From a virus: DNA of 64,000 bases. Made by a program: the position numbers and the translations under genes. The stretch spans positions 4,828-68,827 of IMG/VR virus record IMGVR_UViG_3300020578_000058. One strand, given 5' to 3'. Positions 43,376 through 59,542 of the stretch are shown here, one piece after another (the stretch's first letter is position 1; every line of letters begins with the position of its first letter). A model generated the notes under the pieces. That model was not told the origin of the DNA. It was given only the letters and a program-made list of their open reading frames with translations, and did not search any database.

Positions 43376-43396
43376 GCCTCCTTCTTACGCGGGCGG

Positions 43397-43903
43397 TCAA
43401 GACCACGACACCCCCCAGCCCTGTTGGGCGCAGGTGGAGAGCAAGTCCCGTACTTGCGATACGCAGCGCACCACTCGCTCGTCCTCCACGGCCCCCATGA
43501 ACACGCGCGGCCCCGTGGTGATAGCCGGAAGCCCGTCCTCACACACTCCCACGCGCACGGTGCGGGGGGCTTCGCCTCCTTCGGAGAGGTGGGGGACGCG
43601 CACACCCTCCTTTCCGAGCACGACCATGCACCGCTGCAAGAGGAACGGCAGGGCAGCGTGCTCAATGGAGCCGACCAACCCGTGCTCGCTCTCGCCCTCA
43701 ATGGCAAGGAGGTCGAACACCACCCGCGCCATAGCGTTGGTCATGTCCACGGGCGGCACGGCGTACTCGTCCGCCCACTCCTGCCCGTCCTCGCAGTAGC
43801 CGCACCGCTCCTCTGCGGTGCAGGTCAGCCCCATGCTCGGGGACGAGCATGGGCGGCGCACCGACTCGCACGGTGCGCCGGTCGCGGCGAAGGTGACGCT
43901 CAC
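43397..43903 (-). CDS. Hypothetical protein (Cys cluster)
   Basis: GGAGG RBS before the GTG at 43903, overlapping the upstream stop. Confidence 0.55.
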   Translation of the reverse strand: MSVTFAATGAPCESVRRPCSSPSMGLTCTAEERCGYCEDGQEWADEYAVPPVDMTNAMARVVFDLLAIEGESEHGLVGSIEHAALPFLLQRCMVVLGKEGVRVPHLSEGGEAPRTVRVGVCEDGLPAITTGPRVFMGAVEDERVVRCVSQVRDLLSTCAQQGWGVSWS

Positions 43904-44223
43904 GCGCCCTCCACGCGGGCGCGGGCGGCGGCGAAGCCCGCCGCAATTTCGATGCGGGTGGGAGCGAACTCCACCCCGCAGTCTTCCCACCGCTCCGCGA
44001 TCAAGGACGCCGCAGCGTCCATCACCTCGTCGGAGGTGTTGCCGAGTGCTCGGGCCACACCACCGTTGTTGAAGTGGCCGAAAATGGCCTCCCCCACCGT
44101 CTCGTTGCTAAACTGGGACCACCCGCCGAAGGCGGTGGCGAGCGCGTCGAGGACGAGGCCCGCCGCCTCGGTGGCGGCGGCGGTGGGGGCGGCGGTGAGG
44201 GCGACGGTGGCGGGGGTGGTCAT
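43900..44223 (-). CDS. Hypothetical protein
   Basis: GGAG before MTTPATV; first gene after promoter motif copy 4. Confidence 0.55.
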   Translation of the reverse strand: MTTPATVALTAAPTAAATEAAGLVLDALATAFGGWSQFSNETVGEAIFGHFNNGGVARALGNTSDEVMDAAASLIAERWEDCGVEFAPTRIEIAAGFAAARARVEGA

Positions 44224-44250
44224 TTGGGGCTCCATGTTGGGGTGACACAT

Positions 44251-44285
44251 GGGGTACGCTTGACCCGCTTATGGCGAAAGCCCCC
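44251..44285 (-). promoter_or_regulatory. Conserved phage promoter-like motif, copy 4
   Basis: Minus strand reads GGGGGC TTTCGC-N17-TACCCC. Confidence 0.7.
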
Positions 44286-44303
44286 ACGGGAGAGTTTTTC
44301 AGC

Positions 44304-44816
44304 GTGAACCCGAAGCACCTCGACCTTCGTATCCGTCAATGCCTCATTCTCGCGGAGGCAAGCAACTGCCCGCGCAGGAAGTTCGGGGCGTTACTCCTTG
44401 ACCCGCTCCGCAATGTCGTGCTCGCGGACGGCTACAACGGTGCGCCTCGGGGTGGCTCGCACCTGTGCGGCACCGACACCGTATGCGAGCGCGACCGGCT
44501 CGGAGTCGTGTCGGGGACACGCATGGAGGTCGGGTGCCACCATGCCGAAGCGAATGTCGTCTGCAACGCAGCGGCGAATGGCACACCTACTCGGGGGGCC
44601 GTGCTTGTGGTGACGGGCGAGCCGTGCCTCATGTGTGCCAAACTTCTTCACCACGCCGGGGTGTGTGAAGTCGTGGTCGTGCGGGGTGGCTACGCAGGCG
44701 GCACGGACGGCACCGACTACTTGGAGCGTCACGGGGTCAAGGTCACCTACCGTGAAGGCCCCCGCGACCCTCGGGCAAGTGGTCCCGGCGAGAGCGCGCC
44801 CTACGAAATGACTTGA
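44304..44816 (+). CDS. dCMP deaminase
   Basis: SNCPRRKFGA, GYNGAPRG, HAEAN and EPCLMC zinc-deaminase motifs. Confidence 0.92.
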   Translation: MNPKHLDLRIRQCLILAEASNCPRRKFGALLLDPLRNVVLADGYNGAPRGGSHLCGTDTVCERDRLGVVSGTRMEVGCHHAEANVVCNAAANGTPTRGAVLVVTGEPCLMCAKLLHHAGVCEVVVVRGGYAGGTDGTDYLERHGVKVTYREGPRDPRASGPGESAPYEMT

Positions 44817-44819
44817 CCC

Positions 44820-45038
44820 TCACCGCTTCAAGAACGAGGCGGCAGCGGTGAACCCCTTCGCGGAGACGCGCGGTGGGTTGGACTTCGTGAGCCAGCCCTT
44901 GTCGAGCGCGCACTTGACATACGGGCTGCTTGTGTCCGCATCGAAGTCGAGCGCCAAGCCCCGCACGCAGCGGTCGGCCCACACCACGAGCAGGCTGCGG
45001 GTGTACTCCTCCACGAAGTCAGACTCGGCTTGCGTCAT
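44820..45038 (-). CDS. Small hypothetical protein (possible winged-helix fragment)
   Basis: GAGGAG RBS on the minus strand; 72 aa. Confidence 0.6.
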   Translation of the reverse strand: MTQAESDFVEEYTRSLLVVWADRCVRGLALDFDADTSSPYVKCALDKGWLTKSNPPRVSAKGFTAAASFLKR

Positions 45039-45157
45039 GGGGTAGGCTCCTCAAAGGGCGGGCCGGTTCGTTGGCCGTTCTATACGGCACAGAGAGGTGG
45101 ACGCCCTCGATCCGCCCCCCCGGTTTCTCTACCCGTCCCTTCAAGGAGACTTCACCC

Positions 45158-46009
45158 ATGTCCGACACCGTGCTTCGTCAACGGCTCATTCGTGTCGCTT
45201 CGCAGTTGCCGAAGGGCAGCGCGGAGCGTCGGCAAGTTCTCGCCCTCCTCGCGCCGGACACCCTGCGGAGCAAGGTCGCCGTCAACCAAAAGACGCAGGA
45301 CTTCGTGGAGTGGGTGGTCAACACCGACCCGGTTCCTATGTCCGAGGCCGAGATTGTGAAGTTCGTGAAGGGCACGCTCCGCATGGAGATCAAGCCCCCC
45401 ATTCAGAAGCGTGAAGGTCCGCGCTTTCAACCGGGTGACCGGGTGAAGGTCCAGAAGGACAAGCACAAGGACGAGGCGACTTCCGGCCCGTACATCGAGT
45501 TCAACGGCAAGATTGGTACGGTGGTTACCGTTGAGGGGCAGGACGCCCTCGTGAAGATGGACAGCGGCCCGTCCGAGCCCGTCCGCTTCATTGGTGCGCT
45601 CAAGCCCCGTGGTGTCGGCCTGTTCAAGTACACCCCCGCCTTCGTCATGGAGGGCTCCGTGGCGGTGGAGATGGTCTACTACATGGACGCCGAGGCCGAT
45701 GTGAAGGAGGAGCAGGCGGTCGTGGTTGAGCAGTACATGGGCCGTGCCCGTCAGGGCGAGAAGCGGTCCATGAACTACTACACGGGCCACCTGTTCAATG
45801 CGCGGCTCAATCAAGCGGGTCAGGTCTACTTCCAGATGTTCCCGCAGCAGCGCGTCGAAGTGGACCCCGAGAGCGAGGGGGGTTTCTTGGCCCGCTCGTT
45901 CAACCCGTCGAAGGGCAAGGTGCTCTACATCGGTCGCCTCAACACCGACCGCCCGACCGGGTGGGAGAAGGAGTTGGCCGACATGCGTGCGAAGGCGGGC
46001 GTCCCGTAG
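45158..46009 (+). CDS. Cargo-leader protein with KOW/SH3-like domain
   Basis: AAGGAG RBS, N-terminal LIRVASQLPKGSAERRQVLA leader and FQPGDRVKV...FNGKIGTVV. Confidence 0.7.
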   Translation: MSDTVLRQRLIRVASQLPKGSAERRQVLALLAPDTLRSKVAVNQKTQDFVEWVVNTDPVPMSEAEIVKFVKGTLRMEIKPPIQKREGPRFQPGDRVKVQKDKHKDEATSGPYIEFNGKIGTVVTVEGQDALVKMDSGPSEPVRFIGALKPRGVGLFKYTPAFVMEGSVAVEMVYYMDAEADVKEEQAVVVEQYMGRARQGEKRSMNYYTGHLFNARLNQAGQVYFQMFPQQRVEVDPESEGGFLARSFNPSKGKVLYIGRLNTDRPTGWEKELADMRAKAGVP

Positions 46010-46044
46010 TGTACGGGTAGCGTGTCCGGCAGGAGAAGAACTTC

Positions 46045-46317
46045 ATGTCGGACACGCCCTCGACTTACGGACAGGTGGACAACAAGGTGCTCAATGCCGT
46101 CTCGCGGCTCAAAGCACGGGTGCGCGACCTCACCTCCGAGGTCGGGCGCGTCGAAGTCCACAAGTCGCGCCTCCTTGCAGAAATCGAGCACCTTGACGCA
46201 GAGGCGGCGCGTCTTCTCACCGAGGAGGCTCGCCGCCTTGGTGTTCCCGAGGGCACCCCTTGGCGTATCGGAGAGGACGGGCACGCAGAGGCGGTGCCCC
46301 AACCCGCAGGAGGCTGA
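46045..46317 (+). CDS. Small coiled-coil protein
   Basis: AGGAG RBS and heptad pattern. Confidence 0.6.
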   Translation: MSDTPSTYGQVDNKVLNAVSRLKARVRDLTSEVGRVEVHKSRLLAEIEHLDAEAARLLTEEARRLGVPEGTPWRIGEDGHAEAVPQPAGG

Positions 46318-46320
46318 ACC

Positions 46321-48447
46321 ATGACGGCGACAGGATGGACGCCTACGGCGGGGGAGTTCCCCTTCGCACCTGCCAACGGCACCGTCATGTCGGCGTTCAC
46401 CGGCAACGCTTTCGACATTCGGTGGGACGACCCCTCCACGCTGAACACGGGGCCTGCCACGCCAAGCGTGCGGGCTTCCGTTACGGTCACGGTGGTCGGG
46501 ATGCCCGTGACGCGGAGTGCCGCCACAGGCACGCTTACGGTGGTCACGGCTCCCGTTCCCGTGGGGGCCAATGTCACCATTCAAGGCACGACCTTCTACT
46601 CGGTCGCAGGTGTGCCGGGGGCCAATCAGTTCAACGGTTCTTCGGCCTCCGTGTCCACCGTTGCTGCGAACCTCGCCGCAGCCGTCAATTCAAGCCCGCT
46701 CTACTCGGGCGGGGTCGTTGCGGCCTCGTCCGTGGGGGGTGCGGTCACTCTCACGGCGCGTACCGAAGGGGCAACGGGCAACTTGGTCACGCTCGGTTCG
46801 GCCACACCCACGGTGGTTGTCTCGGGGGGGACACTCTCGGGCGGGGGTGACGGGGCGTACATCTTGCTCGCCACGCAGTACCTCTACGCGGCTACCACGC
46901 GCACGTCGGGGGGCATGGACTTCGCGGTGAGCGCAAGCCCCTACGAGACGGCGCAGAGCATTGCCGCAGCCATCAACGACAAGGCGAACTCGGTCGGGTT
47001 CGTCACCGCTTCGGCCTACGAGAATGTCGTGACCCTCTACGCAGCCATTGACGGGAGCGTGGGCAACGGCGTCATGGTCGAGACGAACGACGCGGCCCTC
47101 ACTCTTTCGGGAAGTCAGACCTCGGGAGGCTACGGTGTCCCCTGCTTGGGGAAGTCGAACTCTCGGTGGAACATCATTGGGGTCAATGTCTACCGCTCGG
47201 ACACGGGCGAGCGCGGCCCGTACTTCCGCGTGAACAAGGTTCCTGTCGGGAGTGATTTCTTCCGCGACCGCACGGACATTGTGCTTGTAGAGGACGAGGT
47301 TGTTGATTGGTCTTGGGGGTGGGTCTACAAGGGTGACGCCCCGAACTTGAACCTGTGGCGGCTCCGCACGCGGCACCGGCCCCTCGTGAAAGAGGCCGGG
47401 GACGCGGTGCCCGCGAACTCACCCGCCGATGTGCTTGTGACGGTGGACGGGCGCGTGGCCCCTGTCTCGCGGGTCTTGGGGCAGTCGGGGGAGATAGACC
47501 TCGACCCCGACCCGGTGTGGAACCCTGCGACCGAGAACTATGTCTACCCCCCGGTCCCGAAGCCTGACGGTACTTCGGTGGTCACGGTGTCCTACCGCTA
47601 CTCGCGGCTGAACCTCGTGACTTCGCTCGACGCGAACTCCAAGGTGTTCTACCGTCTCACGACGGTTGCGGTGGACCCCACGGGGACTTCACCTTCGGGC
47701 TTGGTCGAAACCCCGCTCGGGTACTCGGAGCCCTTGTCTGCGCTCAACAGCGAAAAGACCGACTACATTTGGACGGAGGCCGTTCGCCGGAACCGTTGGA
47801 TCTTGGAGCAGGGTGGCGAGCGGGTCAAGTTGTTCATTCGCCGGGTGACGGGCGTACCCTGTCCTTGTCAATGGGATGTGGCGGTGTTCGCGTTCGCCAA
47901 GCAGCCCTACAACTACTGTTCGTGCTGCTACGGCACCGGCTTCTTGGGCGGCTACGAAGGCCCTATTGACATTATCGTGGCCCCCGACGAGAGCGAACGC
48001 CGCGTCACGCAGACTCCAATGGGCCGTCGTTTGGAGAACACCTACGAGGTGTGGACCGGCCCGCGCCCCATGCTCTCGCAGCGGGACTTCATTGTGAAGC
48101 AGAACGGCGAGAGGTTCAGCGTCGGCCCCGTGCGCCGCACACAGGTGCGGGGCTACACCTTGCAACAGGCGTTCTCTATCGGGAACCTTGACGAGAAGGA
48201 CATTCGGTACTGCGTTCCGCTCACGGGGCTGGAAACCCTGCCGTGGCCCGAGACGCGCTACACCAACCCCGAGAACGCTTACGAGCGTCCCGAAAGCCCC
48301 TGCGCCGAGGGCGACCCGTTCCCCGTGGGCTATGACTACCAAGCCACGCCTATGGGCACCAATGTCCCGAAAGTGCCCGAAGGACGCCAACTTCGCGGGC
48401 GTACTCCGGTGTGGGCGAACATCATGTACGGGGGCAAAGGCCCATGA
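46321..48447 (+). CDS. Neck/head-closure-type virion protein with two sheath-like insertion modules and a Cys cluster
   Basis: GGAGG RBS, two 'AANLAAAVN/AQSIAAAIN' modules, and C-terminal GERVKLFIRR...CPC...CSCCYGTGFLGGY. Confidence 0.6.
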   Translation: MTATGWTPTAGEFPFAPANGTVMSAFTGNAFDIRWDDPSTLNTGPATPSVRASVTVTVVGMPVTRSAATGTLTVVTAPVPVGANVTIQGTTFYSVAGVPGANQFNGSSASVSTVAANLAAAVNSSPLYSGGVVAASSVGGAVTLTARTEGATGNLVTLGSATPTVVVSGGTLSGGGDGAYILLATQYLYAATTRTSGGMDFAVSASPYETAQSIAAAINDKANSVGFVTASAYENVVTLYAAIDGSVGNGVMVETNDAALTLSGSQTSGGYGVPCLGKSNSRWNIIGVNVYRSDTGERGPYFRVNKVPVGSDFFRDRTDIVLVEDEVVDWSWGWVYKGDAPNLNLWRLRTRHRPLVKEAGDAVPANSPADVLVTVDGRVAPVSRVLGQSGEIDLDPDPVWNPATENYVYPPVPKPDGTSVVTVSYRYSRLNLVTSLDANSKVFYRLTTVAVDPTGTSPSGLVETPLGYSEPLSALNSEKTDYIWTEAVRRNRWILEQGGERVKLFIRRVTGVPCPCQWDVAVFAFAKQPYNYCSCCYGTGFLGGYEGPIDIIVAPDESERRVTQTPMGRRLENTYEVWTGPRPMLSQRDFIVKQNGERFSVGPVRRTQVRGYTLQQAFSIGNLDEKDIRYCVPLTGLETLPWPETRYTNPENAYERPESPCAEGDPFPVGYDYQATPMGTNVPKVPEGRQLRGRTPVWANIMYGGKGP

Positions 48448-49064
48448 AGGTCAGCCTCAAACCCAAGGGCCGCAGGGTCTACGGTCGCCCTCTCTTGAAG
48501 AAGTTCGGCGGGGACGGCGCACCCGTGGACTTGACCCCCGAGGTGTTGGAGGAAATCGGCAAGACCATCCTCGATTCGGTGAAGCACGAGGCGCGTATCG
48601 AGATTGCCAAGTACATGAACAAGCCCACCCGCGACGGCGGTGGAGACACGCCTGCTTACATTCGGGACATGAAGGCGTTTCTTGCGATGCTCAAAGTGCG
48701 GGTCGGCGGCAAGAGCAGCGTTGAGTTCTACTTGGCCGAAGGTAAGCGCAAGAAGCGCGTGGGCGACCGCTTGCACACGGTCAACCCGTACCACCACAGG
48801 TTCATCAGCAGCGACCCCAAGGACCAAGCACCCTTCGTCATGGACACCCTCAAGTCGAAGGTTGGCAAGACGGTGCCCCTCGTGGAGTTGGACGGTGAGG
48901 TGGTGTTCCGTGTTGTGCTGCCGAACGCGGCTTGGGTTCACCCCGGCTTCTTGAAGTACACCTTCCTTGAACGAGGCATAACGAAGGGTCGGGCCAAAGC
49001 CGCCGATATTATCCGCGAGAAGGTCATTGTGCCCCTCATTGCCAACGGAGACATTTTCACATGA
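48444..49064 (+). CDS. Putative tail-completion/neck protein (basic; WVHPG...FLERG)
   Basis: HPG motif and FLERGI end typical of HK97 gp10-like virion morphogenesis proteins. ATGA overlap. Confidence 0.5.
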   Translation: MKVSLKPKGRRVYGRPLLKKFGGDGAPVDLTPEVLEEIGKTILDSVKHEARIEIAKYMNKPTRDGGGDTPAYIRDMKAFLAMLKVRVGGKSSVEFYLAEGKRKKRVGDRLHTVNPYHHRFISSDPKDQAPFVMDTLKSKVGKTVPLVELDGEVVFRVVLPNAAWVHPGFLKYTFLERGITKGRAKAADIIREKVIVPLIANGDIFT

Positions 49065-49753
49065 CCGAACTGCGCGTGACCGAACTGCGCGTGGAGTGCA
49101 TGGCTGACCGCGCAGAAATGCCTGACCTCGGCCTCTCCTTGCGCCGAGGCCAAGTGGCGTGGGTGCCTGCCGACAGCGGTGCCAAGTCTGCTTGCCTTCG
49201 GGCTTTGCGTGACATTCGCGCCGTGTCGGTAGTATCAGCGCAGAGGTGTTCCGCCATGCGAAGTCCGCCACCCCCCTCCTTCCGCCTTGCGCGGAAGGGC
49301 ACCACGCCCCGAGTGCCGACCAGCGGCCCTGTACCCGTGGTTGTGCAGGGGGGTGTTCCCGTCGAAGAACTGGACGCGCGTATTGAGCAGGCCGTCGCAG
49401 GAGCCGTGGACAAGTTGGCCGACCGCCTTGTGGCCGCGCTCGGGCAGCAGCGGACTGCACCTGCAAGCAGCGCGCCTCTCAATGAGGAAGCCCTCTCGCG
49501 GGCCGTGGCGGACGCTGTATCGCAGGCTCTTTCGCAGCAGGTGGGCGGCGCCCTTCGCTCGGGAGGTGGGGGCTCTCGGGCCTTGGTGAGCGGCCCCGAA
49601 GAACCTGTTTACATTCCCTCGGGTATCGTCTCGTCCGAGACGGCCACCGACCTTCAAGTGACGGCGCAGGCTACGGACGCGGGCGACCTTGCCGGTGCCG
49701 CGTCTGCCCTTCGCAAGACCCGCACCCGCAAGACCACAGGAACCCCCGAATGA
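49061..49753 (+). CDS. Hypothetical protein, translationally coupled to the actin-like ATPase
   Basis: ATGA overlaps on both sides; begins with a 15-bp duplication (TELRV x2). Confidence 0.6.
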   Translation: MTELRVTELRVECMADRAEMPDLGLSLRRGQVAWVPADSGAKSACLRALRDIRAVSVVSAQRCSAMRSPPPPSFRLARKGTTPRVPTSGPVPVVVQGGVPVEELDARIEQAVAGAVDKLADRLVAALGQQRTAPASSAPLNEEALSRAVADAVSQALSQQVGGALRSGGGGSRALVSGPEEPVYIPSGIVSSETATDLQVTAQATDAGDLAGAASALRKTRTRKTTGTPE

Positions 49754-50769
49754 GCACCGACAAGAGCGACAAGACCAAGCCCAACCGTGGGGTCGGGCTC
49801 GACCTCGGGACAATGAACATTGTCTCGGCTCGCTCTCGCAGCGGCAAGGTGGACTTCTCTCGCATCCGAGACGCCTTCCTCGACCTCGACATCAGCGCCA
49901 AGAAGATGCTCAAGTTGAGCGGCGTGTCCTACATTGAGCGCGGTGAGAACATCGTCGTCATCGGTGACGCCGCTATGGAAATGGCGAACGTCTTTGGTCG
50001 GGAGGCCCGTCGCCCTCTGTCCCGTGGCTTGGTGGCCGCAGGTGAAGTCGAAGCGTTGGAAGTCCTCGGGGTCATGGTCAAGAATGTCCTCGGCGCCCCC
50101 GTGGAGCCGAACGAGGTCTGCTACTTCTGCGTGCCCGCTGCGCCCGTGGACGAGGACCGGGATGTGGTCTACCACCGGGGCGTCTTTGAGCGCATTGTGA
50201 CCGAGTGCGGCTACAAGGCCATCTCCTCCAACGAGGCTATGGCGATTATCTACTCCGAGACGGCCAACGAGGGCTTCTCGGGCCTCGCCATCTCCTTCGG
50301 CAGCGGCATGTGCAATGTCGCCCTTGCCGTCAACGGCATTGAGGGATTCTCGTTCTCCGTTGCCCGTGGGGGCGATTGGATTGACGAGGGTGCAGCCCGC
50401 GCCGTGGGCAGCACCCGCTCCCGTATCTGTGCCTTGAAGGAGAAGGGCTTCGACTTGCTCGCGCCCGTGGGCCGGGAGCAGGAGGCGCTTGCCCTCTACT
50501 ACAAGAGCCTCATCGAGTACTGCTTGGAGACGACCGCCCGCGAGTTCCTTCGCATCAAGGACAAGTTCTCGCTTCCCAAGGCTGTGCCCTTCGTGGTGTC
50601 GGGCGGGACGAGCCTGCCCACTAACTTCGTGCCATTCCTGACCTCGGTGTGGAGCCGCATGAAGAAGAAGTTCCCGTTGGAGGTGAGCGAGGTTCGCCAC
50701 GCCTCCGACCCCATGAACGCCGTCGCTCGGGGTTTGCTCGTGCTCGCCCTGCAAGAGTACGACGACTGA
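49750..50769 (+). CDS. Actin-like ATPase (MreB/MamK/ParM superfamily)
   Basis: Phosphate-1 GLDLGT, connect-1 NEAMA, phosphate-2 SFGSGMCN, GGDWID, adenosine VVSGGTS and connect-2 PMNAVARG. Confidence 0.88.
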   Translation: MSTDKSDKTKPNRGVGLDLGTMNIVSARSRSGKVDFSRIRDAFLDLDISAKKMLKLSGVSYIERGENIVVIGDAAMEMANVFGREARRPLSRGLVAAGEVEALEVLGVMVKNVLGAPVEPNEVCYFCVPAAPVDEDRDVVYHRGVFERIVTECGYKAISSNEAMAIIYSETANEGFSGLAISFGSGMCNVALAVNGIEGFSFSVARGGDWIDEGAARAVGSTRSRICALKEKGFDLLAPVGREQEALALYYKSLIEYCLETTAREFLRIKDKFSLPKAVPFVVSGGTSLPTNFVPFLTSVWSRMKKKFPLEVSEVRHASDPMNAVARGLLVLALQEYDD

Positions 50770-50813
50770 TAGGGCGGGCGTGCCTATTGCCCGCGTGAGG
50801 TCGGAGAAGGCCC

Positions 50814-52061
50814 ATGTTCGCTAACCTCACCGAGTCCATGAAGCGGCGCATCCTCTTGGAGTTGCGCCGCTTTTGGTCTTTCGACCCGAAGTACCGCGAC
50901 ACCCTTGTTGACAACATCCAAGGGAAGTACGCTTTCTCCGAACGCCCCCAAGTGGGCATTATCCTCAAAGGCTCGTCTGCCAGCCCTATGCAGTTGTCCG
51001 CCGACAACTTCCAAGGCACGGTCGTCTCCTACTGCCACCTTGCCAAAGTCTACGGGAAGCCGGGGTTGAGCATTGAGTGGGTCCGCGAGGACTCCCGCGC
51101 CATCCAGAAGAACGGCGGCGTGTTCCCCTCGCCCCGTGGCATCTACTTCATTGAGGTTCGCTTGGAGGAGGTCAGCCTCCCGGTCGAAGCCTGCCCAACG
51201 CCCATGAACGGCGAGCAACTCGTGTTCTATGTGGACCCGCTGCTCGATGTCATTGACGAACGGGCTGCTCGGCTTACCGCGTTTCAGTACCAAGTGGCGC
51301 AAGGTGAGTTCTACGACGGCTCCCTGCGCGTCTACGAAATGCCGGGGAACATTCCCCTCACCTTGGGGCTGGACTACACCGCCGACCCCGCCACAGGAAC
51401 CATCACGCTCGTCCGCCCTGTACCTTCCTCGGACTTCTTGTCCGTGGACTACCGCTACGCGGGCGAGAGTGTCGGGCCGTTTCCCGTGCCGCAGGACGGC
51501 TCCAACAACACGGCCATTCCCGGCGTCGTGCTTGCCTTCGGGCGGCGCTCCGAGGACGGCGACATCATGCTCGTCGTGGTCGGGGACACACGCGAGGCGT
51601 CCGCTCGGGAGTACGGCGGGCGGTGGGAGATGAACTTCGACCTCGACATTATGGCGCGGGACACGGCGGCGCAGCAGGAGATCACCGACCGGACCCTCAT
51701 GTTCTTCCACGCCGTCGCCCGCAACCGGCTCTCGGAGGAGGGCATTGAGATCACGCAAGTCTCAATGGGCGGCGAGGCCGAAGAAGTCTACGACGAGACG
51801 GGCGACGACTACTACTTCACCGCAAGCATCAGCCTCACCATTCTCACAGACTGGTGCCTGTGGGTGCCGCTCGACCATGCTTTCACGCGGATCATTCCGG
51901 TGGCGTTGGCTTCGGAGCGGGCGGTCACGGGTCTGACGGACGACCAACTTGCGGCGTCGGGTTCTCCGACGAGCCTGTATGTGGCGCAGGACTTGCGGTT
52001 CCTGTCCCCGACCGACCCGTTCTTTCGGGACCGGACGCGGGACTACGAGTTGATCCGGTAG
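50814..52061 (+). CDS. Putative tail terminator/completion protein
   Basis: Located in the neck cluster. Contains the WEMNFDLDIMARD...EITD pattern and a DYTAD..TGTITL insertion. Confidence 0.55.
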   Translation: MFANLTESMKRRILLELRRFWSFDPKYRDTLVDNIQGKYAFSERPQVGIILKGSSASPMQLSADNFQGTVVSYCHLAKVYGKPGLSIEWVREDSRAIQKNGGVFPSPRGIYFIEVRLEEVSLPVEACPTPMNGEQLVFYVDPLLDVIDERAARLTAFQYQVAQGEFYDGSLRVYEMPGNIPLTLGLDYTADPATGTITLVRPVPSSDFLSVDYRYAGESVGPFPVPQDGSNNTAIPGVVLAFGRRSEDGDIMLVVVGDTREASAREYGGRWEMNFDLDIMARDTAAQQEITDRTLMFFHAVARNRLSEEGIEITQVSMGGEAEEVYDETGDDYYFTASISLTILTDWCLWVPLDHAFTRIIPVALASERAVTGLTDDQLAASGSPTSLYVAQDLRFLSPTDPFFRDRTRDYELIR

Positions 52062-52422
52062 CCTGCTTGCGCTGCTCGTGGCGGCGCACAATGCGCTGCT
52101 CGGTGTTGGGCACGCGCTCCCGACCGGCAACGGGGCCACGGCGACCAATGCGCTTGCGCTCACCCGTGCCAATCTCCTGTATGCCCGTGAGTGCGCCTTG
52201 CTCGTCCACCGTGCCGACGAACCGCACGGTGTTCGACGGCGGCGTGGACCTCTTGGGCTGCGGCTTCTTCGTCGTGACCCGACCCTTCTCCTTGCCACGG
52301 AACAGGTGTGCGACCTCACCCGACTTCGGGTGGACCTTGGTGTGGTAGTAGAGTTCTTCGATCACCCGTCCCTGCCTTCGCAGCAGGGTGTGTGCTGCCA
52401 TGAGCAGGGCGTCGGGGGTCAC
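51925..52422 (-). CDS. Basic hypothetical protein (3' end uncertain)
   Basis: GTG overlaps the stop of the upstream minus gene, but the ORF runs ~135 bp into the convergent + gene. Confidence 0.35.
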   Translation of the reverse strand: MTPDALLMAAHTLLRRQGRVIEELYYHTKVHPKSGEVAHLFRGKEKGRVTTKKPQPKRSTPPSNTVRFVGTVDEQGALTGIQEIGTGERKRIGRRGPVAGRERVPNTEQRIVRRHEQRKQATGSTRSPASGPERTGRSGTGTASPAPHTGSSENPTPQVGRPSDP

Positions 52423-52631
52423 GAGCCGTGCCCCCCACGGCGACCGGAGCGGCAGTAGCGACACCACGATTGGTTTCGCACCACATCTTCGCCGTTCGGT
52501 CCCGCGTGCTTCATGCGCCGAAGGCCGAACTCGTTGAGGGGCTTTGTGACCCCGCAGGACGGGCACTTGCGGTTCACCGCGCCCGTCTTGTGGTCCCGCT
52601 CTCCCTGCACTACTACGATGTCGCGCTGCAT
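52419..52631 (-). CDS. Small zinc-finger protein (CxxC...CxxC)
   Basis: GGAGG RBS; RKCPSCGVTKPLNEF...QSWCRYC. Confidence 0.65.
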   Translation of the reverse strand: MQRDIVVVQGERDHKTGAVNRKCPSCGVTKPLNEFGLRRMKHAGPNGEDVVRNQSWCRYCRSGRRGGHGS

Positions 52632-52712
52632 GGTTCCACCTCCCATGAACGCATACACGACGAGGGGGGTGCTTCCACCCCCCACCACCGCGCCCTTTCC
52701 GAGAGGGGGCGG

Positions 52713-53600
52713 CTACGCCGGAACCGGATAGTCGCGCTTGTCGGTCCACCGGAGGAGCGCCTTGCCCGTCTCGGGGCAGAGCAGGCTGCGCCCGGTGACC
52801 ACTTCACCGTCCACACTCTCGCCCATGTACTCCATGTTGGAGTGGGCGATCCACCGCGACCCCACGGGGCCGAGCACATACTCCCGGCCAGCGAAGGTGA
52901 CGCGCTCGCCCGCTGCCTTGTAGGCCCCGCCCGAAGCCTGCCACTCGGCGGCGAGCGCCTTGCGGGCCTCACCGGCCTTGCGGGCCTCCTCACGCTTGCG
53001 GGCCTCAACAGCGCGCCGCTCGGCGCGAGCGACCAGCGTGCCCGCGTCCCCCGCCCCCATGAGGGCGCGGAGGCCCAACTTGGCCTCCGCGTCGTGAAGG
53101 GCAATGAACGCCTCCACCTCGGCGACCACCGCGCGGGCCAGCGCCACGAGCGCGTCGGCCTCCTCGACCGTGAACCACCGCACATCGAACCATTCACCCA
53201 GGCGGGTGCCGACCTCGGCGTAGCGGGCCGTGAGGGCGGCGCGCTCCTGCGCCACGGCGGGGAGGGGCACCACGCCCGTCTCCACGAGCACGGCGGGGTG
53301 GTTCGGCCCCCGCCGCACGCAGCGCACGGTGGGCCGCACATAGCCGGTGCGGCCCCCGCCAACCTGATAGTCAAAGCCCGTCGTGCGGGCGTAAAGATCG
53401 CCGGGCAGGAGCCCGTGGTGCTCACGGCGAGCCGTGTGGTAGGTGGTGCGGCGCACCTCCACAATACAATCCTCGCACCCTTCACAGCCCGAAACCACGC
53501 CCTCGCCGCCGCAGGACGACGGCGATTCGTCGCCGTCGTCCTCGACGCCGCAGCAGGGGCAGTAGGAACAGGAGTAACCACGGCAGACTTCGCACGACAT
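52713..53600 (-). CDS. Hypothetical protein with Cys-rich N-terminus and coiled coil
   Basis: GGAG RBS before MSCEVCRGYSCSYCPCCG; follows promoter motif copy 5. Confidence 0.6.
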   Translation of the reverse strand: MSCEVCRGYSCSYCPCCGVEDDGDESPSSCGGEGVVSGCEGCEDCIVEVRRTTYHTARREHHGLLPGDLYARTTGFDYQVGGGRTGYVRPTVRCVRRGPNHPAVLVETGVVPLPAVAQERAALTARYAEVGTRLGEWFDVRWFTVEEADALVALARAVVAEVEAFIALHDAEAKLGLRALMGAGDAGTLVARAERRAVEARKREEARKAGEARKALAAEWQASGGAYKAAGERVTFAGREYVLGPVGSRWIAHSNMEYMGESVDGEVVTGRSLLCPETGKALLRWTDKRDYPVPA

Positions 53601-53644
53601 TCGGAACTCCGTGCCCGCTCGGCGGGACAGGTGGGGGTGTGAGA

Positions 53645-53678
53645 GGGGTACGCGGCACCTCCTCGGAGCGAAACCCCC
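53645..53678 (-). promoter_or_regulatory. Conserved phage promoter-like motif, copy 5
   Basis: Minus strand reads GGGGG TTTCGC-N17-TACCCC TCTCAC, nearly identical to copy 1 around the -10 element. Confidence 0.7.
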
Positions 53679-53719
53679 ACGGGTAAGGTTTTTCGTCCTT
53701 CGCTTCATGGAGCAGGGTC

Positions 53720-54211
53720 ATGCCCGTCTACGAGTTCACCTGCCATTCCTGCGGCCTTCGGTTCGACAAGTTGTTCCGGCGCATGGAGAGCAGCGACACC
53801 CTTGCGGAAACCCCGTGTGACTCCTGCGGGGAGCCTGCTTACCGACAGGTCACGGCAGCGGCGTTCAAGTTCTCGCACGCCCCCTCCCAAGTACGAGGCG
53901 CGGCTCCCCCGAACACCGGCACGAGCGACGATTGGAACTACGACAAGGCCATTGGCCGAGACGCCGAGCAGAAGTGGAAGGTAGTCGAGAAGCGGGACGC
54001 GGAGAAAGCCCGCGTCATCCGGCAGGGGCGCGAAAACGGGCTTGCTCTCAACAACGGTCAACTCGTGCGCTCGCGGGAGGACGGCTCTTACCGGGCCATC
54101 ACCGAGCCCGAGCGCAAGGTGGTGAACGAGCGTCGGGATGTAGCGTTCCAAGTGGCGCAAGCGGCACGGGAGCAGTCGAAGAAGAAGCCGCCCGAGGGGA
54201 CCGGCGGCTGA
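53720..54211 (+). CDS. FmdB-family zinc-ribbon protein (second copy)
   Basis: MPVYEFTCHSCGLRF...CDSCG; GGAG RBS. Confidence 0.8.
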   Translation: MPVYEFTCHSCGLRFDKLFRRMESSDTLAETPCDSCGEPAYRQVTAAAFKFSHAPSQVRGAAPPNTGTSDDWNYDKAIGRDAEQKWKVVEKRDAEKARVIRQGRENGLALNNGQLVRSREDGSYRAITEPERKVVNERRDVAFQVAQAAREQSKKKPPEGTGG

Positions 54212-54343
54212 TAGCGTCCCTATACGGGGCAGGAAGGAAAGAACTCCCCCACGAGGGGACGGCTACGACCTATACCGCCGTGCTTGCACTTCTCGGCCCT
54301 CTCGCACCGTGAGCGGGTTCGCACCACTTCTCCGAGGTTCCCA

Positions 54344-57300
54344 ATGGCCTTCCCCGGCAGCGTCTATGCCCCTCCCGGCGTTTACACGCAGACCAACTTT
54401 GAGTCCCCCGTGCAGGGCATTGCCGCGAACCTCCGCGTTCCGGTGTTCATTGGCACCGGCAACGAGATCCTCGCGCAGTCGAACCTTGAAGTCGTGCGCG
54501 GTTCTTCCGCGAGCGTTGACCAGCGGGTTGTCGAGGAGGACGAGACGGGCCGTGCGGTCACCTTCGTCTCCCCGAGCGGGTCGGTGACCCTCGGTGCTTT
54601 CAATGGCACCTATGACCGTGTGCAGGTGCGGCACTTCCCCATCGTGACCGGCAACGGCACGGGGACGACGGCGACGGACACCTCCTCGGTGAGCGTCACT
54701 GTGAACGGCGACCCCGTGGTTGTCCTGTCCATGAACGCGGCCCTTGGCATTCTCAAGTTGAGTGTGGCCCCGGCTGCGACCGACACCGTGCGCGTCACCT
54801 ACTACTTCGACCGCACCGACACGCTCATCACCGATGACCTCTCCGAGCAGGTGACGCCCGAGGCCCCCGTGCTCTACGGCGCGGTGGGGCAGAACTACAC
54901 CATCACGACGGGCAGCAACGACACGCTCTCCTTCACGGTGGACGACACGGACACGGTGAGCGTCACCATTTCTGCTTCTCCGAGCGGCGGGTGGACGGCG
55001 GCGCAGGTGGCGGCGTTCATCAACAGCGCGGCGACGGGCACGAGCCTCGTGGCCGGTACGGCGACCAACAACTTCGGGCAGGTGGTCCTCACGCTGACTG
55101 CCGACCGCGATGTGACGGTCGGGAACGGGACCGCGAACACGACCCTCGGCTTCTCCTTCGGGGACACGACGGCGCGCAACAAGGTGTTCTACACCTTCCA
55201 GCAGCCCATTGTGGACGGCTCGGGCGGCGGCGTCACCACGACCGACCCTTCCGATGTGACGGTGAAGGTGGACGGCGTGCAGGTCATCCCCTCGGCGGTG
55301 GACGGGCAGTCCGGTGCCGTGACCCTGCCCTTCGCCCCCGAGGTTGGGGCCACGGTCACGGTGGAGTACTACTTCAACTCGTGGCAGGACACCTTCGACT
55401 ACTTGGCGAACCGCAACATCACGGACATCACGCTCTGCGGCGTGGCGCCCGACCGTTCGGACTATGTGGACGGAACGGACTTCGTGCTCCAAGACGACAA
55501 GATTGTTTGGGGCACGGCGGTTCTTGTGGCGTCCGGCACGCACACCTCGGGCGCTACTTACTTGGACGAGTCGCAGGTGACGCCGACCCTCGTGGACGCC
55601 CGGCAGTACCTCGCCCCTTGTGCGACCGTGAGCGCGACCACCTTCACGCTGCCTTTGCAGCCCACGACGGGCAACGGGCGTGACACCCCGCTCGGCACCG
55701 CGACCTACAACAAGGTCGCCAACGGGCGCATCGACCTCCCGACGAACCGCCCCGACCTCGTGTACGCCTATTGGGGCTACTCGGTCGAGGACGCGCTCGA
55801 CCGTGGCCGCGTGACCGTGACCAAGGTGGACAGCGCCACGAGCACCATCACGCTCTCCGAGCCGGTGCCCACGGGTGCGACGGTCTACGCGACTTTCTAC
55901 TACAACACCATCGTTGACCAAGCCTACACGCTCACGAGCGTCACGCCGGGTCCGAGCGGCGTTGGCACCTACACCGTGAGCAACGAGGACGGCACGCTTC
56001 TCGTGACCCCGACCTCGGGCAGCAAGTCCGCCGGGCTTGCCACCATTGAGTTGGTGTTTCCGAGCGGCTCCGAGAGCCTGCCCGACTTCCGCTACGAGAC
56101 GCCGTTCGACGCCGACCTGTTCACGGGAGCCGTCGAAGAAGATGTCACGGTGACCTTCGCATCCAAGGACGCGACCCCCGCCAAGTACGCGGTCCCGTCG
56201 AGCGGGCCGTACTACGCGGTGTCGGGTTCTTCCGACCGCTTCCGCTTGAAGGTGGACGGCTCTGACCTCGTGAGCGGTGCAGCGGGTCTGAACCTGTCTC
56301 GTCCTCTCGCGGGGGTCACGGGGCTCGGCTTCCCGGCGCAGTTGGTCGGCAACGAGGCCGTGTACGACGCTCCGAGCGGTGGCGCTTCCTTTGAGGTGGA
56401 CGCGACCAACAACACGGTCAACATGGAAGTGGACGGGGTGCTCGTGCAGGCGGTGGCCGACGACAACGCCTCGGCTACGCTGGCCGACTTCGCGGCTGCA
56501 ATCAACCGCGCCGCTTCGGGCGAGGTGGACACGGCGGCGGGCGGCGGCGCTTCGACCATCACCCTTGCGGCCTCCGCGTCGTCGCAGGACGACTTCTATG
56601 TGGGCTACAAGGTGCATGTGACGGCGGGTGCCGCCATTGGCGACATTCGCACCGTGACCGCCTACAACGGCACCACTCGGGTCGCCACGGTGACGCCCGC
56701 TTGGACGGGTGCTCCCGGCGGCGGCGACACCTACTCGGTGTACGACGAAGCCACCCTTCCGCAGTATGTGACCGGCACGGCGTTCACCTCTCCTGTGGTC
56801 ATTTCGGCGGGCGACTACGACCAACTCCGGTTCGTCTACTCGGGCGATACCTCGGCGTCCTTGGGCACGCTCACCGCGACCCTCACTCCTGGCACCTACA
56901 CCTCCTCTGCGGCTCTTGCGGCGGCGGTGCAGACGGCAATTGACGCCGCCATCGCGGCGGCTCCTCCCGCTGCCTACGGTGCATTCTCGGTGGTGGTCGC
57001 TGCGAACACCTCGGGCAAGTTGGTGTTCTCGCTCGTGCGCGACCCGACCGACACGAACGGCTACTTGGAGTTCGTCACCAACGCGGCCCCGGCGCGGGAC
57101 TTCGCGGTTCTTGCGGGCATCTCCGCTGCAAGTGCTGCGAACGGCGCACAGGCCAAGTTGGTGAACGGGGCCATTGCTCGTCACTTTACGGTTGGCGCTG
57201 CTCCGCTCCTGTACGACCGCTTGGTGCTCCGTTCTCGGTTGGTGCCGGGCAGCGGCAGCGTGGACGGTCAGGGTGTTCTTGCCGTCACGCAACTCAAGCA

Positions 57301-59542
57301 ACTCGGCGGCACCGGGGCTTCGCTCGCGGGCCTTACCGCCAACGAGAACGCCTACGCCGGGTTGAAGGGCACCATTCTGCCCGCCACCCTGCTCGGGACG
57401 GTCGGCCTTGCGGGCGGGCAGGTTCCGGCTGCGGCCTACGGTGACGCCCGCGACGGTCAGCCCGTGGTGACCTTCTTCGCGGCGGGCGGCACGAGCGCGC
57501 AGAACAACGAGTTCAAGTTCACCTTCGACAATGTGCCGGTGACGGTGGTGTTCACCGACGCGGCGGGTGCGGCTATCCCCTCGGGTGGCAGCGCCGATGT
57601 TCCGCTCGGTCCTGCAACGACGGCCAACACCGTTCTCAACCAAGTGGCGGCGGCTATGGCTTCCGTTGGCTTGGGTGCGAGCGCGGCAGCGGTGGTGTCG
57701 GCGGGCTTGGTGCGGCAGGAGGGCGCAAGCATTCGCTTCCGCTCGGCCCTGTCCACCCCGACCTCGGGCATCGTGGTCGGCACGGCGAACGCGAACGACA
57801 CCCTCGGGTTCGGCGCGGGCGACAGCGCGGAGCGCACGAACCTGCAAGTCGAAGTTCTTGTCTCGGCGCTCATGGCGCACTTCGACGGCTCGGTGGCGAA
57901 CTCGCTGCTCAACTGGTCGTCGGGCGGCGCGGCGACGTACTTCGCGGGCGAGGCTCTTGCCAAGCGCGTGACGGACGCCAGCAACGCCGAGTACCTCTAC
58001 TTGCAGTCGTTGGGCAACGCGGGCTTGGGCACGACTTCTTCGGTCGAGTTCGCGGCTGCTACTTCGGCAAGCGTCACGCTTCCCGGCGTCGGCTTGGGGG
58101 TCATCGCGGGCGACGGGGCGACGGGCGAAGCGGCTATCAGCGGCTTCTATGTCACCTCGACCGACATTGTGAGCGGCTCGGGCACGGCCAACACCTCGTA
58201 CCTCAACAGCGGCACGGGGCAGGACGGCGTGGTGGGGCAGACCTACCGTGACGCGGTGACGGGCTTGACCTTCACGGTTCTTCCGCGAGCGGGCAACCTC
58301 GCCTACCCGAGCGGGCAGTTCTTCACCATCGTCGCTCGCAAGTTGGTCACGACTGACGCCAACACCCCGGTCAACACGCTTCCCGGTGTGGCCCTCACGG
58401 TGAGCAACACGCTCGGTGTGGCGGCGGGGGACACGGCGACGGTCACGACCTACGCGCGCAGCGGGTCGCAGCCTGCGGTGGGGGATGTCTACTATGTCTC
58501 CTACACCTACACGAAGCAGGACTACAACACGGCCCTCTACACCAAGTTGTCGGCTATTGAGGCTGCTTACGGCCCCAACAGCCCGCTCAACCCGGTGGTG
58601 CTCGCCTCCTACCTCGCCATTCTCAACGGCGCGGTGCTGGTCGGCATCAAGCAGGTGCAGAAGGACACGGACGCCGACAACAACGGCGAGTTCGATACGG
58701 CCTCCGAGAGCGCGTACCTCGCGGCCATTGACGACCTTGAAGGGCAGTTGCCGGGGGGCATCCTCCCCGACATTCTGACCCCGCTCAAGGGCGACAGCGT
58801 GAACCTGTTCCAGTACCTCGCCAAGCAATGCGACATTCAGAGCAGCATTCGCTACCGTGCCGAGCGCACGGGCGTAGTCGGGTTCTCGGCGGGCACGCAG
58901 CCCACGGCGGCAGGCAACGCGGCGGTCGCGGTCGGTCGCACGCGCCTTCGGTGTGTGTACCCCGACATTGCGAACCTCACGCTCTCCCGTGCGGACGGTG
59001 CGACGGACACCTACTTGGTGGACGGCACCTTCCTTGCGGCGGCTCTCGTGGGCTCGCTCGTGTCCCCGACGACCGATGTGGCTACCCCGTGGACGGGTCG
59101 CCGCCTGTTCGGCTTCGACCGTATCGCCCGCATCCTCGACGCGGTTCAGCAGAACCAAGTCGCGGTCAAGGGCATCACGATCCTTGAAGATCGCAACCCG
59201 GTCATTCGCGTTCGGCAGGGCTTCTCTACCGACATGACGAATGTGCTGACCCGTACCCCGACCGTCATCACCATTGCGGACGAGGTGCAGCAGCAGACCC
59301 GCGCCACGCTCGACAGGTTCATCGGCATCAAGTTCTTGCCGGGGGTCACGTCGCAGATCGAGGGGCAGGTGAGCAACACGCTCAAGCAGTTGGTCGCCGC
59401 GCAGATCATCACGGCGTACACCGGGGTCAAGGCCAAGGTGTCCGAGGACGACCCCACGGTGGCCGAGGTCGAGGCGTACTATCAGCCCGTGTTCCCACTT
59501 TTGTATATCGTGGTCACATTCAACCTGCGGTCGAGCCTCTAA
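54344..59542 (+). CDS. Tail sheath protein, very large (~1,732 aa)
   Basis: N-terminal YAPPGVYTQT...VPVFIG and C-terminal sheath core (RAERTGVVG, VYPD, GITILE, VEAYYQPVFPLLYIVVTFNL), with ~1,200 aa of inserted domains. Confidence 0.9.
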   Translation: MAFPGSVYAPPGVYTQTNFESPVQGIAANLRVPVFIGTGNEILAQSNLEVVRGSSASVDQRVVEEDETGRAVTFVSPSGSVTLGAFNGTYDRVQVRHFPIVTGNGTGTTATDTSSVSVTVNGDPVVVLSMNAALGILKLSVAPAATDTVRVTYYFDRTDTLITDDLSEQVTPEAPVLYGAVGQNYTITTGSNDTLSFTVDDTDTVSVTISASPSGGWTAAQVAAFINSAATGTSLVAGTATNNFGQVVLTLTADRDVTVGNGTANTTLGFSFGDTTARNKVFYTFQQPIVDGSGGGVTTTDPSDVTVKVDGVQVIPSAVDGQSGAVTLPFAPEVGATVTVEYYFNSWQDTFDYLANRNITDITLCGVAPDRSDYVDGTDFVLQDDKIVWGTAVLVASGTHTSGATYLDESQVTPTLVDARQYLAPCATVSATTFTLPLQPTTGNGRDTPLGTATYNKVANGRIDLPTNRPDLVYAYWGYSVEDALDRGRVTVTKVDSATSTITLSEPVPTGATVYATFYYNTIVDQAYTLTSVTPGPSGVGTYTVSNEDGTLLVTPTSGSKSAGLATIELVFPSGSESLPDFRYETPFDADLFTGAVEEDVTVTFASKDATPAKYAVPSSGPYYAVSGSSDRFRLKVDGSDLVSGAAGLNLSRPLAGVTGLGFPAQLVGNEAVYDAPSGGASFEVDATNNTVNMEVDGVLVQAVADDNASATLADFAAAINRAASGEVDTAAGGGASTITLAASASSQDDFYVGYKVHVTAGAAIGDIRTVTAYNGTTRVATVTPAWTGAPGGGDTYSVYDEATLPQYVTGTAFTSPVVISAGDYDQLRFVYSGDTSASLGTLTATLTPGTYTSSAALAAAVQTAIDAAIAAAPPAAYGAFSVVVAANTSGKLVFSLVRDPTDTNGYLEFVTNAAPARDFAVLAGISAASAANGAQAKLVNGAIARHFTVGAAPLLYDRLVLRSRLVPGSGSVDGQGVLAVTQLKQLGGTGASLAGLTANENAYAGLKGTILPATLLGTVGLAGGQVPAAAYGDARDGQPVVTFFAAGGTSAQNNEFKFTFDNVPVTVVFTDAAGAAIPSGGSADVPLGPATTANTVLNQVAAAMASVGLGASAAAVVSAGLVRQEGASIRFRSALSTPTSGIVVGTANANDTLGFGAGDSAERTNLQVEVLVSALMAHFDGSVANSLLNWSSGGAATYFAGEALAKRVTDASNAEYLYLQSLGNAGLGTTSSVEFAAATSASVTLPGVGLGVIAGDGATGEAAISGFYVTSTDIVSGSGTANTSYLNSGTGQDGVVGQTYRDAVTGLTFTVLPRAGNLAYPSGQFFTIVARKLVTTDANTPVNTLPGVALTVSNTLGVAAGDTATVTTYARSGSQPAVGDVYYVSYTYTKQDYNTALYTKLSAIEAAYGPNSPLNPVVLASYLAILNGAVLVGIKQVQKDTDADNNGEFDTASESAYLAAIDDLEGQLPGGILPDILTPLKGDSVNLFQYLAKQCDIQSSIRYRAERTGVVGFSAGTQPTAAGNAAVAVGRTRLRCVYPDIANLTLSRADGATDTYLVDGTFLAAALVGSLVSPTTDVATPWTGRRLFGFDRIARILDAVQQNQVAVKGITILEDRNPVIRVRQGFSTDMTNVLTRTPTVITIADEVQQQTRATLDRFIGIKFLPGVTSQIEGQVSNTLKQLVAAQIITAYTGVKAKVSEDDPTVAEVEAYYQPVFPLLYIVVTFNLRSSL

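Follow-up and report, generated by a model that had tools for sequence, protein, structure and literature searches.

A Volactin-Family Actin and Its Candidate Docking Adaptor in a Gene Block Leading to Predicted Neck and Tail Genes of a Huge Bacteriophage

Could a bacteriophage build an actin skeleton with its own docking partner, and what would such a pair do in the infected cell? Two adjacent genes raise this question in the IMG/VR virus record IMGVR_UViG_3300020578_000058, of which we analyzed positions 4828 to 68827 (64,000 nucleotides; here, the window). One encodes a 339-amino-acid (aa) actin-like protein and the other, directly upstream, a 230-aa protein that we call the adaptor. A first-pass annotation, made from the DNA letters, had placed an actin-like ATPase at 49061-50769 and had proposed that it works with an adaptor in virion assembly; this span covers two genes, and the actin itself lies at 49750-50769. 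We give an even chance to the reading that the pair forms a two-component phage actin cytoskeleton, with a filament and a docking adaptor devoted to it, produced alongside neck/tail proteins. The Volactin-family, MamK-like ATPase would be the filament-forming subunit, and the 230-aa protein, translated just before the actin, would be its dedicated adaptor. The C-terminal strand and amphipathic helix of the adaptor are predicted to dock on actin subdomain IA and in the IA/IIA groove, which would leave its N-terminal domain (∼70 aa) free to hold cargo. The pair is probably synthesized along with neck/tail proteins of the virion; its task would be to move something, or to set it in place, while particles assemble in the infected cell.

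The actin-like protein and its nucleotide site

The 339-aa protein belongs to the Pfam family Volactin (PF25216), whose profile it matches over positions 3 to 321 of 321 (E 4.7e-72; 243.6 bits against a gathering cutoff of 35). Volactin was the only family found in a Pfam scan at E ≤ 0.01, and the MreB_Mbl model was not matched by the actin. In a genome-level search of this virus, the Volactin model scored 243.3 bits; of 14 control genomes, four gave any match, with only Haloferax volcanii above the cutoff and Escherichia coli, Deinococcus, and Thermotoga below it. Relatives of the actin fall into 1057 clusters (50% identity) at E ≤ 1e-3 and 332 at E ≤ 1e-30, and the actin-like identity proposed in the first pass stands far above chance.

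A model made with AlphaFold2 (AF2) from a 51-sequence alignment (predicted local distance difference test [pLDDT], 93; predicted template modeling score, 0.91) has the two-lobed actin/ASKHA fold. Its top match by Foldseek and VIA was the MamK filament 5ljv_A (Z 29.5; root mean square deviation, 2.7 over 294 residues; 20% identity), followed by BeeR (Z 27.9), MreB (∼26), F-actin (∼25.7), crenactin (25.4), and DnaK (∼25). The alignment profile, searched against PDB, likewise gave MamK (E 2.8e-13), BeeR (3.9e-6), MreB (1.7e-5), and FtsA (1.2e-3); neither a ParM chain nor an Hsp70 was among the matches. A single-sequence phmmer search of PDB returned noise only (best E 0.12). Neither the actin and the adaptor nor the neighboring 206-aa and 415-aa proteins described below had a match in PHROGs, and a library of predicted viral structures contained no close relative of the actin, its top-scoring entries (≤16% identity) being Hsp70s and proteins without names. 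The earlier reading as an actin-like ATPase is therefore sound as to the fold, but it had missed both the Volactin family and the closeness to MamK. Codon-position guanine-plus-cytosine (GC) contents of the gene (GC1/2/3 = 0.60/0.43/0.85) follow an ordinary high-GC pattern.

MamK is the best solved-structure relative by profile and by fold, and in both cases cargo would be organized through a partner protein (as we propose here); there is, however, no magnetosome context in the window, and the phosphate-2 loop has Ser where MamK has Asp. The BeeR filament (8r2n) is second best by fold and by profile but shares only 17% identity and is a bacterial cellular protein; we know of no adaptor relationship for BeeR.

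All actin-fold motifs had been said to be present. The phosphate-1 (DLGTMN), connect-1 (NEAMAII), adenosine (SGGTS), and connect-2 (DPMNAVARG) motifs are indeed canonical, but the phosphate-2 loop is not: in the HMMER alignment, Ser182 aligns with the Asp of MamK, and MreB, MamK, and ParM all carry Asp there. That Asp is required for hydrolysis in MamK, ParM, and MreB. Among the single-domain family representatives, however, the position is Ser in 84 of 86 and Asp in 2, and the Ser is therefore a family-wide trait rather than decay. The other columns of the nucleotide site are similarly constant (of 86 representatives, D18 in 82, G20 in 83, E162 in 84, S182 in 84, G186 in 86, N189 in 85, G285 in 86, and G328 in 86), and the 339-aa protein has all of the family-type motifs (DxGT; NE; SxGxGMxN; GGT/S; connect-2 Gly).

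The phosphate-2 loop is also where many of the longer homologues are interrupted. Numerous ∼700-aa homologues (P0001, P0003 to P0005, P0011, P0012, and others) contain inteins, with Intein_splicing domains accompanied by HNH or LAGLIDADG domains. In the numbering of the window protein, these are inserted after S182, M187, N189, and R206, four points within 25 residues (∼50293-50370). Their location in or just past the loop suggests that inteins invaded the nucleotide-binding site several times independently.

The family resemblance extends to volactin (VolA, HVO_2015) of Haloferax volcanii, with which the protein shares PF25216 by a wide margin, a likeness established through the family model and its representatives; the phosphate-2 signature S-x-G-x-G-M-x-N occurs in those representatives, including the haloarchaeal-like P0085. 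Volactin is archaeal and has a role in cell shape, whereas the gene studied here belongs to a huge bacteriophage, is paired with an adaptor, and lies among virion genes. Dynamic cytoplasmic filaments of volactin are described in vivo in PMC10869688. Polymerization of the 339-aa protein would be expected from its family membership, its MamK-like fold, and this behavior of volactin.

The same fold and loop bear on a different proposal, which we consider rather improbable, that the protein is an ASKHA ATPase that forms no filaments and assists the assembly of neck/tail parts as an Hsp70-like chaperone, with the 230-aa protein as a cofactor or client. Closterovirus Hsp70h, for instance, is needed for virion tail assembly. 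The altered phosphate-2 loop, the position among morphogenesis genes, the nearly equal fold match to Hsp70 nucleotide-binding domains (represented by DnaK), and the Hsp70s at the top of the viral-library matches would all suit a chaperone, but the protein is an actin core alone and lacks a substrate-binding domain, its sequence profiles match MamK, BeeR, MreB, and FtsA rather than Hsp70, and the founder of its family polymerizes (PMC10869688).

The adaptor and its predicted docking on actin

The adaptor is a conserved protein of distinctive layout. In a 25-sequence alignment, a conserved N-terminal domain of ∼70 residues is followed by a variable, low-complexity linker rich in Ala and Pro and then by a conserved C terminus. 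D22 and S43 are invariant in the N-terminal domain, and L23, G30, L46, and V55 are nearly so. The C terminus carries the motif P-x-[FY]-I-P-x-x-I, a short strand, and a helix of the form A-A-x-A-L-[KR]-x-x-R (here, A-A-x-A-L-K-A-L-R-K-K); P186 and L217 are invariant, and P182, A213, and R221 are nearly invariant. Profile searches found no Pfam, PHROG, or PDB match (best E against solved chains, 0.12), and all 34 database relatives are unnamed. The codon-position GC contents of the gene (0.73/0.59/0.70) are atypical because of its richness in Ala, Gly, and Pro. The possibility that the open reading frame (ORF) is a noncoding artifact of high GC content was ruled out by conservation at 24 to 57% identity and by the invariant motifs.

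The adaptor had been suspected of being the partner of the actin, and this suspicion held up well: every one of the 31 viral loci has an adaptor gene directly upstream of the actin gene, and the two proteins are predicted to dock. For the complex predictions, the actin alignment was combined with residues 170 to 230 of the adaptor alignment, and three controls were run. The adaptor segment scored ipSAE 0.72, 0.71, and 0.72 with the actin, against 0.00 for all three controls; the mark used was attained by 58 of 80 solved complexes and by 2 of 110 mismatched pairs, counts that apply approximately to runs with custom alignments such as these. The partner pLDDT was at least 69, and at least 86% of contacts were common to the runs.

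The predicted contacts involve residues 185-191, 194-218, and 220-221 of the adaptor and residues 29, 32-39, 60-74, 100-115, 141-153, 168-176, 195-196, and 320-335 of the actin. The pairs with the lowest predicted error link adaptor residues A213, A214, and L217 to actin residues Y168, A172, F176, V331, L334, and Q335, and they also join the adaptor strand 200-205 to the actin strand 34-39. The contacted residues of the adaptor are its most conserved ones (I185, P186, I189, A213, A216, L217, and R221), and conserved partners on the actin side include Y141, I149, A172, F176, L330, and Q335. According to the secondary structure of the model, the contacted part of the actin comprises two helices, one following connect-1 and the other at the C terminus; we take this region, from general actin-fold topology, to be the groove between subdomains IA and IIA together with the IA surface. 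The groove is occupied by the C-terminal helix of ParR in ParM and, in actin itself, by WH2-type helices; the two cases serve here as leads. Memory of this particular pair is an unlikely source of the score, because no solved chain is related to the adaptor in sequence. Strict synteny and the docking prediction are two independent lines of support for the idea of an adaptor. Were the groove buried in the polymer, as it is in ParM, the adaptor would be found on monomers or at the end of a filament, where it could track that end as a carrier, nucleate the filament, or cap it.

Docking of this kind raises the question of whether the cargo might be DNA. In ParM/ParR/parC, as proposed here, an actin-like ATPase is joined by a small adaptor whose C-terminal helix occupies the IA/IIA groove, an arrangement that in our case is predicted; unlike that system, the window has no parC-like repeats, no ParM profile match, and the adaptor gene first, in reversed gene order. 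We consider it unlikely that the pair is a DNA-positioning system of the ParMRC/AlpAC type, in which the N-terminal domain of the adaptor would bind phage DNA and the filament would move or anchor genomes in replication, packaging, or plasmid-like carriage. The resemblance of the docking to that of ParR on ParM, the Arg-rich N-terminal domain, and the basic tail of the adaptor are what such a system would have, and yet the N-terminal domain has no detectable match to a DNA-binding family. The first pass had noted a lack of centromere-like repeats nearby, and we likewise found no iteron or array families in 44000-54500, that is, within ∼5 kb on either side of the pair, which also speaks against this proposal. 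The sole tandem repeat there is an exact 15-nucleotide (nt) duplication at 49062-49092, within the adaptor ORF just after its start codon, which gives the N terminus MTELRVTELRV and is present as a single copy in the closest relative (L001).

Among phages, AlpC/AlpA offers a precedent. It shares with our locus a phage-encoded actin-like protein and an adaptor gene upstream, and its two-gene logic and order (alpA-alpC, cotranscribed) favor DNA positioning: AlpA of the Corynebacterium prophage CGP3 is described as binding both a DNA site and AlpC, the pair being induced early and serving replication (PMC4446434). Here, by contrast, repeats are absent, the actin is of a different family, and the pair lies among structural genes rather than replication or lysogeny genes, a context that suggests late rather than early expression; the likeness is one of gene layout and is drawn from the published description.

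The gene block around the pair

The source record is 68.8 kb long and is estimated to be 15% complete, and the window is thus a ∼15% piece of a very large (huge) bacteriophage genome. Genes elsewhere in the window encode a sigma-70 region-4 protein, a deoxynucleoside kinase, a dCMP deaminase, a PAP2 and topoisomerase-IB fusion, and a weak match to the large terminase; the sigma-70-type gene indicates a bacteriophage rather than an archaeon. The fusion gene (16132-19803) encodes a 1223-aa protein in which a PAP2 phosphatase domain (residues 257-345) is joined to the catalytic core of a eukaryotic-type topoisomerase IB (residues 406-608). The stretch is present in lake-water and freshwater metagenome runs; none of the runs listed for it is RNA, and two runs flagged as RNA candidates (probably DNA) contain only diverged relatives, as contigs.

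Conservation of the neighborhood was evaluated in 31 viral loci whose actins are 46 to 91% identical to that of the window and whose GC contents range from 37 to 68%, several of the loci being near-duplicates of one another. Table 1 gives the genes together with the counts of their homologues. In the 17 loci in which tblastn did not find the adaptor, reading of the ORFs revealed a gene of the 230-aa type in each, one copy being cut at a contig end, and the adaptor-actin pair is therefore kept in all 31. The same order occurs in a 485-kb phage genome record and in three contigs binned into metagenome-assembled genomes (MAGs) of Actinomycetota, Legionellales, and an unclassified organism; these three were treated as phage contigs and not as evidence of the host. 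Two loci (L017, 3138-3920; L021, 5549-6331) have a 260-aa ORF of the Vsr/DUF559 endonuclease type exactly between the adaptor and the actin, probably a homing endonuclease. A 297-kb viral contig, counted as L007 and L010, contains two adaptor-actin modules on opposite strands (local GC contents, 0.556 and 0.597), which could reflect duplication or a chimeric assembly.

TABLE 1 Features of the actin locus in the window, with the position and frequency of homologues in 31 viral loci
Feature	Coordinates	Strand	Basis or remark	Position of homologue	Loci with homologue
708-aa gene	46321..48447	+	ORF; first of the chained block	Upstream	28/31 (tblastn)
206-aa gene	48444..49064	+	ORF; ATGA overlaps stop of 708-aa gene	Upstream	27/31 (tblastn)
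230-aa adaptor-like gene	49061..49753	+	ORF and conservation	Directly upstream	14/31 (tblastn)
Predicted actin-binding segment, adaptor codons 182-221	49604..49723	+	Alignment, complex prediction
339-aa actin-fold gene, Volactin PF25216	49750..50769	+	Pfam, AF2
Phosphate-2 loop SFGSGMCN, actin residues 182-189	50293..50316	+	Ser182 at the usual Asp position
415-aa tail-terminator-fold gene	50814..52061	+	AF2, Foldseek, VIA	Within 8 kb downstream	22/31 (tblastn)
163-aa zinc-ribbon gene	53720..54211	+	Pfam Zn_ribbon_8, E 1.7e-9	Just upstream of sheath gene	7/31
1752-aa tail sheath gene	54284..59542	+	phrog_2839 match, residues 1393-1748	Within 8 kb downstream	22/31 (tblastn)

The genes had been described as chained by ATGA overlaps from 46321 through 48444 and 49061 to 49750. 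The last three overlaps are present, but at 46321 there is instead a 3-nt gap to the preceding gene. All intergenic gaps are ≤45 nt across 45152-52061, a tight spacing that fits a single transcription unit. Because this same-strand block runs into the terminator and sheath genes, the pair is probably made with neck/tail proteins, and we infer coexpression with late genes.

The gene following the actin, which the first pass had called tail-completion-like, begins after a 44-nt gap, and its product (AF2 model pLDDT, 74) is indeed predicted to have a tail-terminator fold. Foldseek matched it to the neck chain 8q01_M of phage 812 (E 2e-6) and gave a probability of 1.00 for several neck chains; VIA placed the same phage 812 chain first (Z 14.4), followed by the E217 gateway protein (13.1), lambda gpU (11.3), and T4 gp15 (9.6). 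In ESM Atlas, the leading name was SP10_terminator (score, 0.91), while the alignment profile found nothing usable in PDB. By its model, the 415-aa protein is a tail terminator of the neck whose gpU/gp15-type fold is interrupted by a beta domain at roughly residues 144-216. Further downstream, the last ∼360 residues of the 1752-aa protein match the tail sheath (E 3.4e-24). This sheath protein is unusually large, and its first ∼1390 residues have only a weak DUF2460 match (residues 323-365). Two genes (89 aa and 331 aa, Cys-rich) on the minus strand (52419-53708) split the stretch between the terminator and the sheath; both recur only in the closest relative, L001, which suggests a recent insertion.

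Two further conserved proteins are encoded upstream. The 708-aa family has four invariant cysteines in its C-terminal 430 residues (C514, C516, C533, and C536), one pair lying in a CxxCxG stretch. Its sole family match is phrog_28344, a PHROG of unknown function; there was no Pfam or PDB match and no named relative in ESM Atlas. Its N-terminal part is paralogous to a 518-aa protein encoded at 2774-4330 (33 to 37% identity in related loci). The 206-aa family has an invariant W-x-H-P-G motif and 74 database relatives, all unnamed; Pfam, PHROG, and PDB gave no assignment, apart from one weak match of the profile to TM1012 in PDB (residues 8-78). Pfam scans of the individual members of the 206-aa, adaptor, and 708-aa alignments produced scattered single-member matches only.

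The position of the actin gene between this conserved 708-/206-aa block and the tail terminator gene would also be compatible with a structural role in the virion, as a part of the neck, collar, or fibers. We regard this as very improbable, since the complete, conserved, and intein-targeted nucleotide-binding site points to an active enzyme and no solved phage neck chain is among the best 50 structural matches in PDB.

Several observations weigh against a filament-plus-adaptor system tied to virion assembly. In 9 of the 31 loci (L004 to L012), the terminator and sheath genes have no place within 8 kb downstream of the actin, and in one large record of this group the terminator is ∼16 kb away and on the opposite strand. 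The linkage of actin to tail genes is thus not obligatory, and a role in virion assembly, which gene position suggests in the window, is not indicated by position in every locus. The 8 kb past the actin in these nine loci showed no match to any gene of the window, except in L007 (two reversed matches, to 8962-9543 and 9583-10260). They nevertheless keep the 708-aa, 206-aa, adaptor, and actin block upstream, and because they nest within the well-supported subclade of the window itself (FastTree), the loss of adjacency looks derived. A simple scan of 42000-61000 for sigma-70 promoters and terminators gave no signal that would delimit a transcription unit, the sites being no more common than in shuffled sequence, and the 708-aa and 206-aa partners have no known function, so that the label of a neck module comes from position alone. 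On the side of the proteins, the usual phosphate-2 Asp is replaced by Ser in the actin. The confidence expressed by the complex score is that of the model itself, and helices are known to bind in the actin groove, a likeness that may account for some of the pass; moreover, conservation at the interface does not exceed that elsewhere in the actin (0.756 versus 0.750), because the whole protein is highly conserved.

Taken together, the first-pass interpretation fares well in its actin fold, partner-like adaptor, neck/tail surroundings, and lack of repeats, and less well in its strict link to tail genes. Placement among neck/tail genes is clear in the window, with the terminator directly downstream and the sheath beyond it, but the adjacency extends to 22 of the 31 loci.

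Spread of the family and possible roles

The family is far larger than the set of loci compared above. A word-indexed search matched the actin to at least 1798 clusters at 90% identity; among the 120 matches listed of these 1798, all are PF25216, on contigs of up to 350 kb, and either are nameless or carry the name "hypothetical protein." In the phage collection, two records only matched, both uncultured phage genomes (485 kb, with 58% identity, and 595 kb, with 31%). No tubulin-family gene (PF00091) was found in five related records, the 485-kb and 595-kb genomes among them, although a very divergent PhuZ might escape such a search. As no tubulin-family gene turned up in these five records, actin may be the only cytoskeletal gene of the clade.

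Cellular members of the family were found in three MAG contigs of Omnitrophota, which carry two or three tandem Volactin-family paralogues (36 to 39% identity) in cellular surroundings; on this account, the Volactin family has bacterial cellular members. The copies lie at 5977-8183 of L038, 5908-8180 of L040, and 229-3333 of L039, and their neighbors include response regulators, a pyruvate-dehydrogenase-E1-like gene, and an upstream ORF of 96 to 103 aa. Two representatives have unusual architectures: in P0053 (1160 aa), the Volactin domain is fused to the Wzz, GNVR, and ParA-like tyrosine-kinase domains of polysaccharide copolymerases, and P0006 (729 aa) has the domain in tandem duplicate. In a FastTree phylogeny (midpoint root, Shimodaira-Hasegawa-like support), 27 syntenic phage actins fall on one side of a branch with a support of 95, which separates them from the Omnitrophota copies and the acidic haloarchaeal-like representative P0085. 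Near-duplicates (L005, L010, L024, L025, L028, and L029) and representatives outside 300 to 400 aa were left out of this tree.

Cellular relatives of this kind, together with a fold near that of MreB and the control of Haloferax cell shape by volactin (PMC10869688), would fit a takeover of the host, in which the phage actin disrupts or replaces the shape or division cytoskeleton, for example, by enlarging or reshaping the cell for giant virions. This seems to us quite improbable, as the strict association of the actin with an adaptor specific to phages and the phage-only gene block point to a partner internal to the phage.

A two-component cytoskeleton acting in particle assembly might have a functional model in PhuZ, the tubulin of nucleus-forming jumbo phages, which a 2026 review of jumbo-phage biology describes as positioning structures and carrying capsids. 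PhuZ is a tubulin and not an actin, and no tubulin-family gene accompanies the present family in the five related records. An extension of our reading to a broad clade of huge phages, in which Volactin-type filaments with an end-docking adaptor would carry or align heads, necks, or tails as the actin counterpart of the PhuZ spindle, is more doubtful than the reading itself.

The locus is of the actin-plus-adaptor sort seen in phages and plasmids. In the text available from the 2026 review, the phage cytoskeleton consists of PhuZ and related tubulins, and "actin" occurs only inside "Actinobacteria." The listed papers that name volactin concern, judged by titles, archaea or the cytoskeleton in general. 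Earlier hints of phage actins are a "mreB-like" gene on the map of Bacillus phage 0305phi8-36, mentioned in a figure legend, and a title on actin-like proteins of Bacillus pumilus phages in the reference list of another paper. In the literature covered, to which the supplements of the volactin paper (PMC10869688) did not belong, we found no printed description of a phage Volactin-family actin, of this adaptor, or of a placement with neck/tail genes, and the combination of a Volactin actin and a docking partner in huge phages appears to be previously undescribed.

Phage-built cytoskeletons have so far been known mainly as PhuZ tubulin. Here, a Volactin actin and a docking partner are conserved over huge phages with GC contents of 37 to 68%, in a very large and wholly unnamed protein family. 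The central claims lend themselves to direct tests, since the two genes are short and easily expressed and their products look soluble. If the protein polymerizes and carries cargo, it would provide an actin-based model of intracellular organization by phages, and the Volactin family would not be confined to archaea. The conserved pair suggests that phages of this kind may build an internal skeleton of their own.

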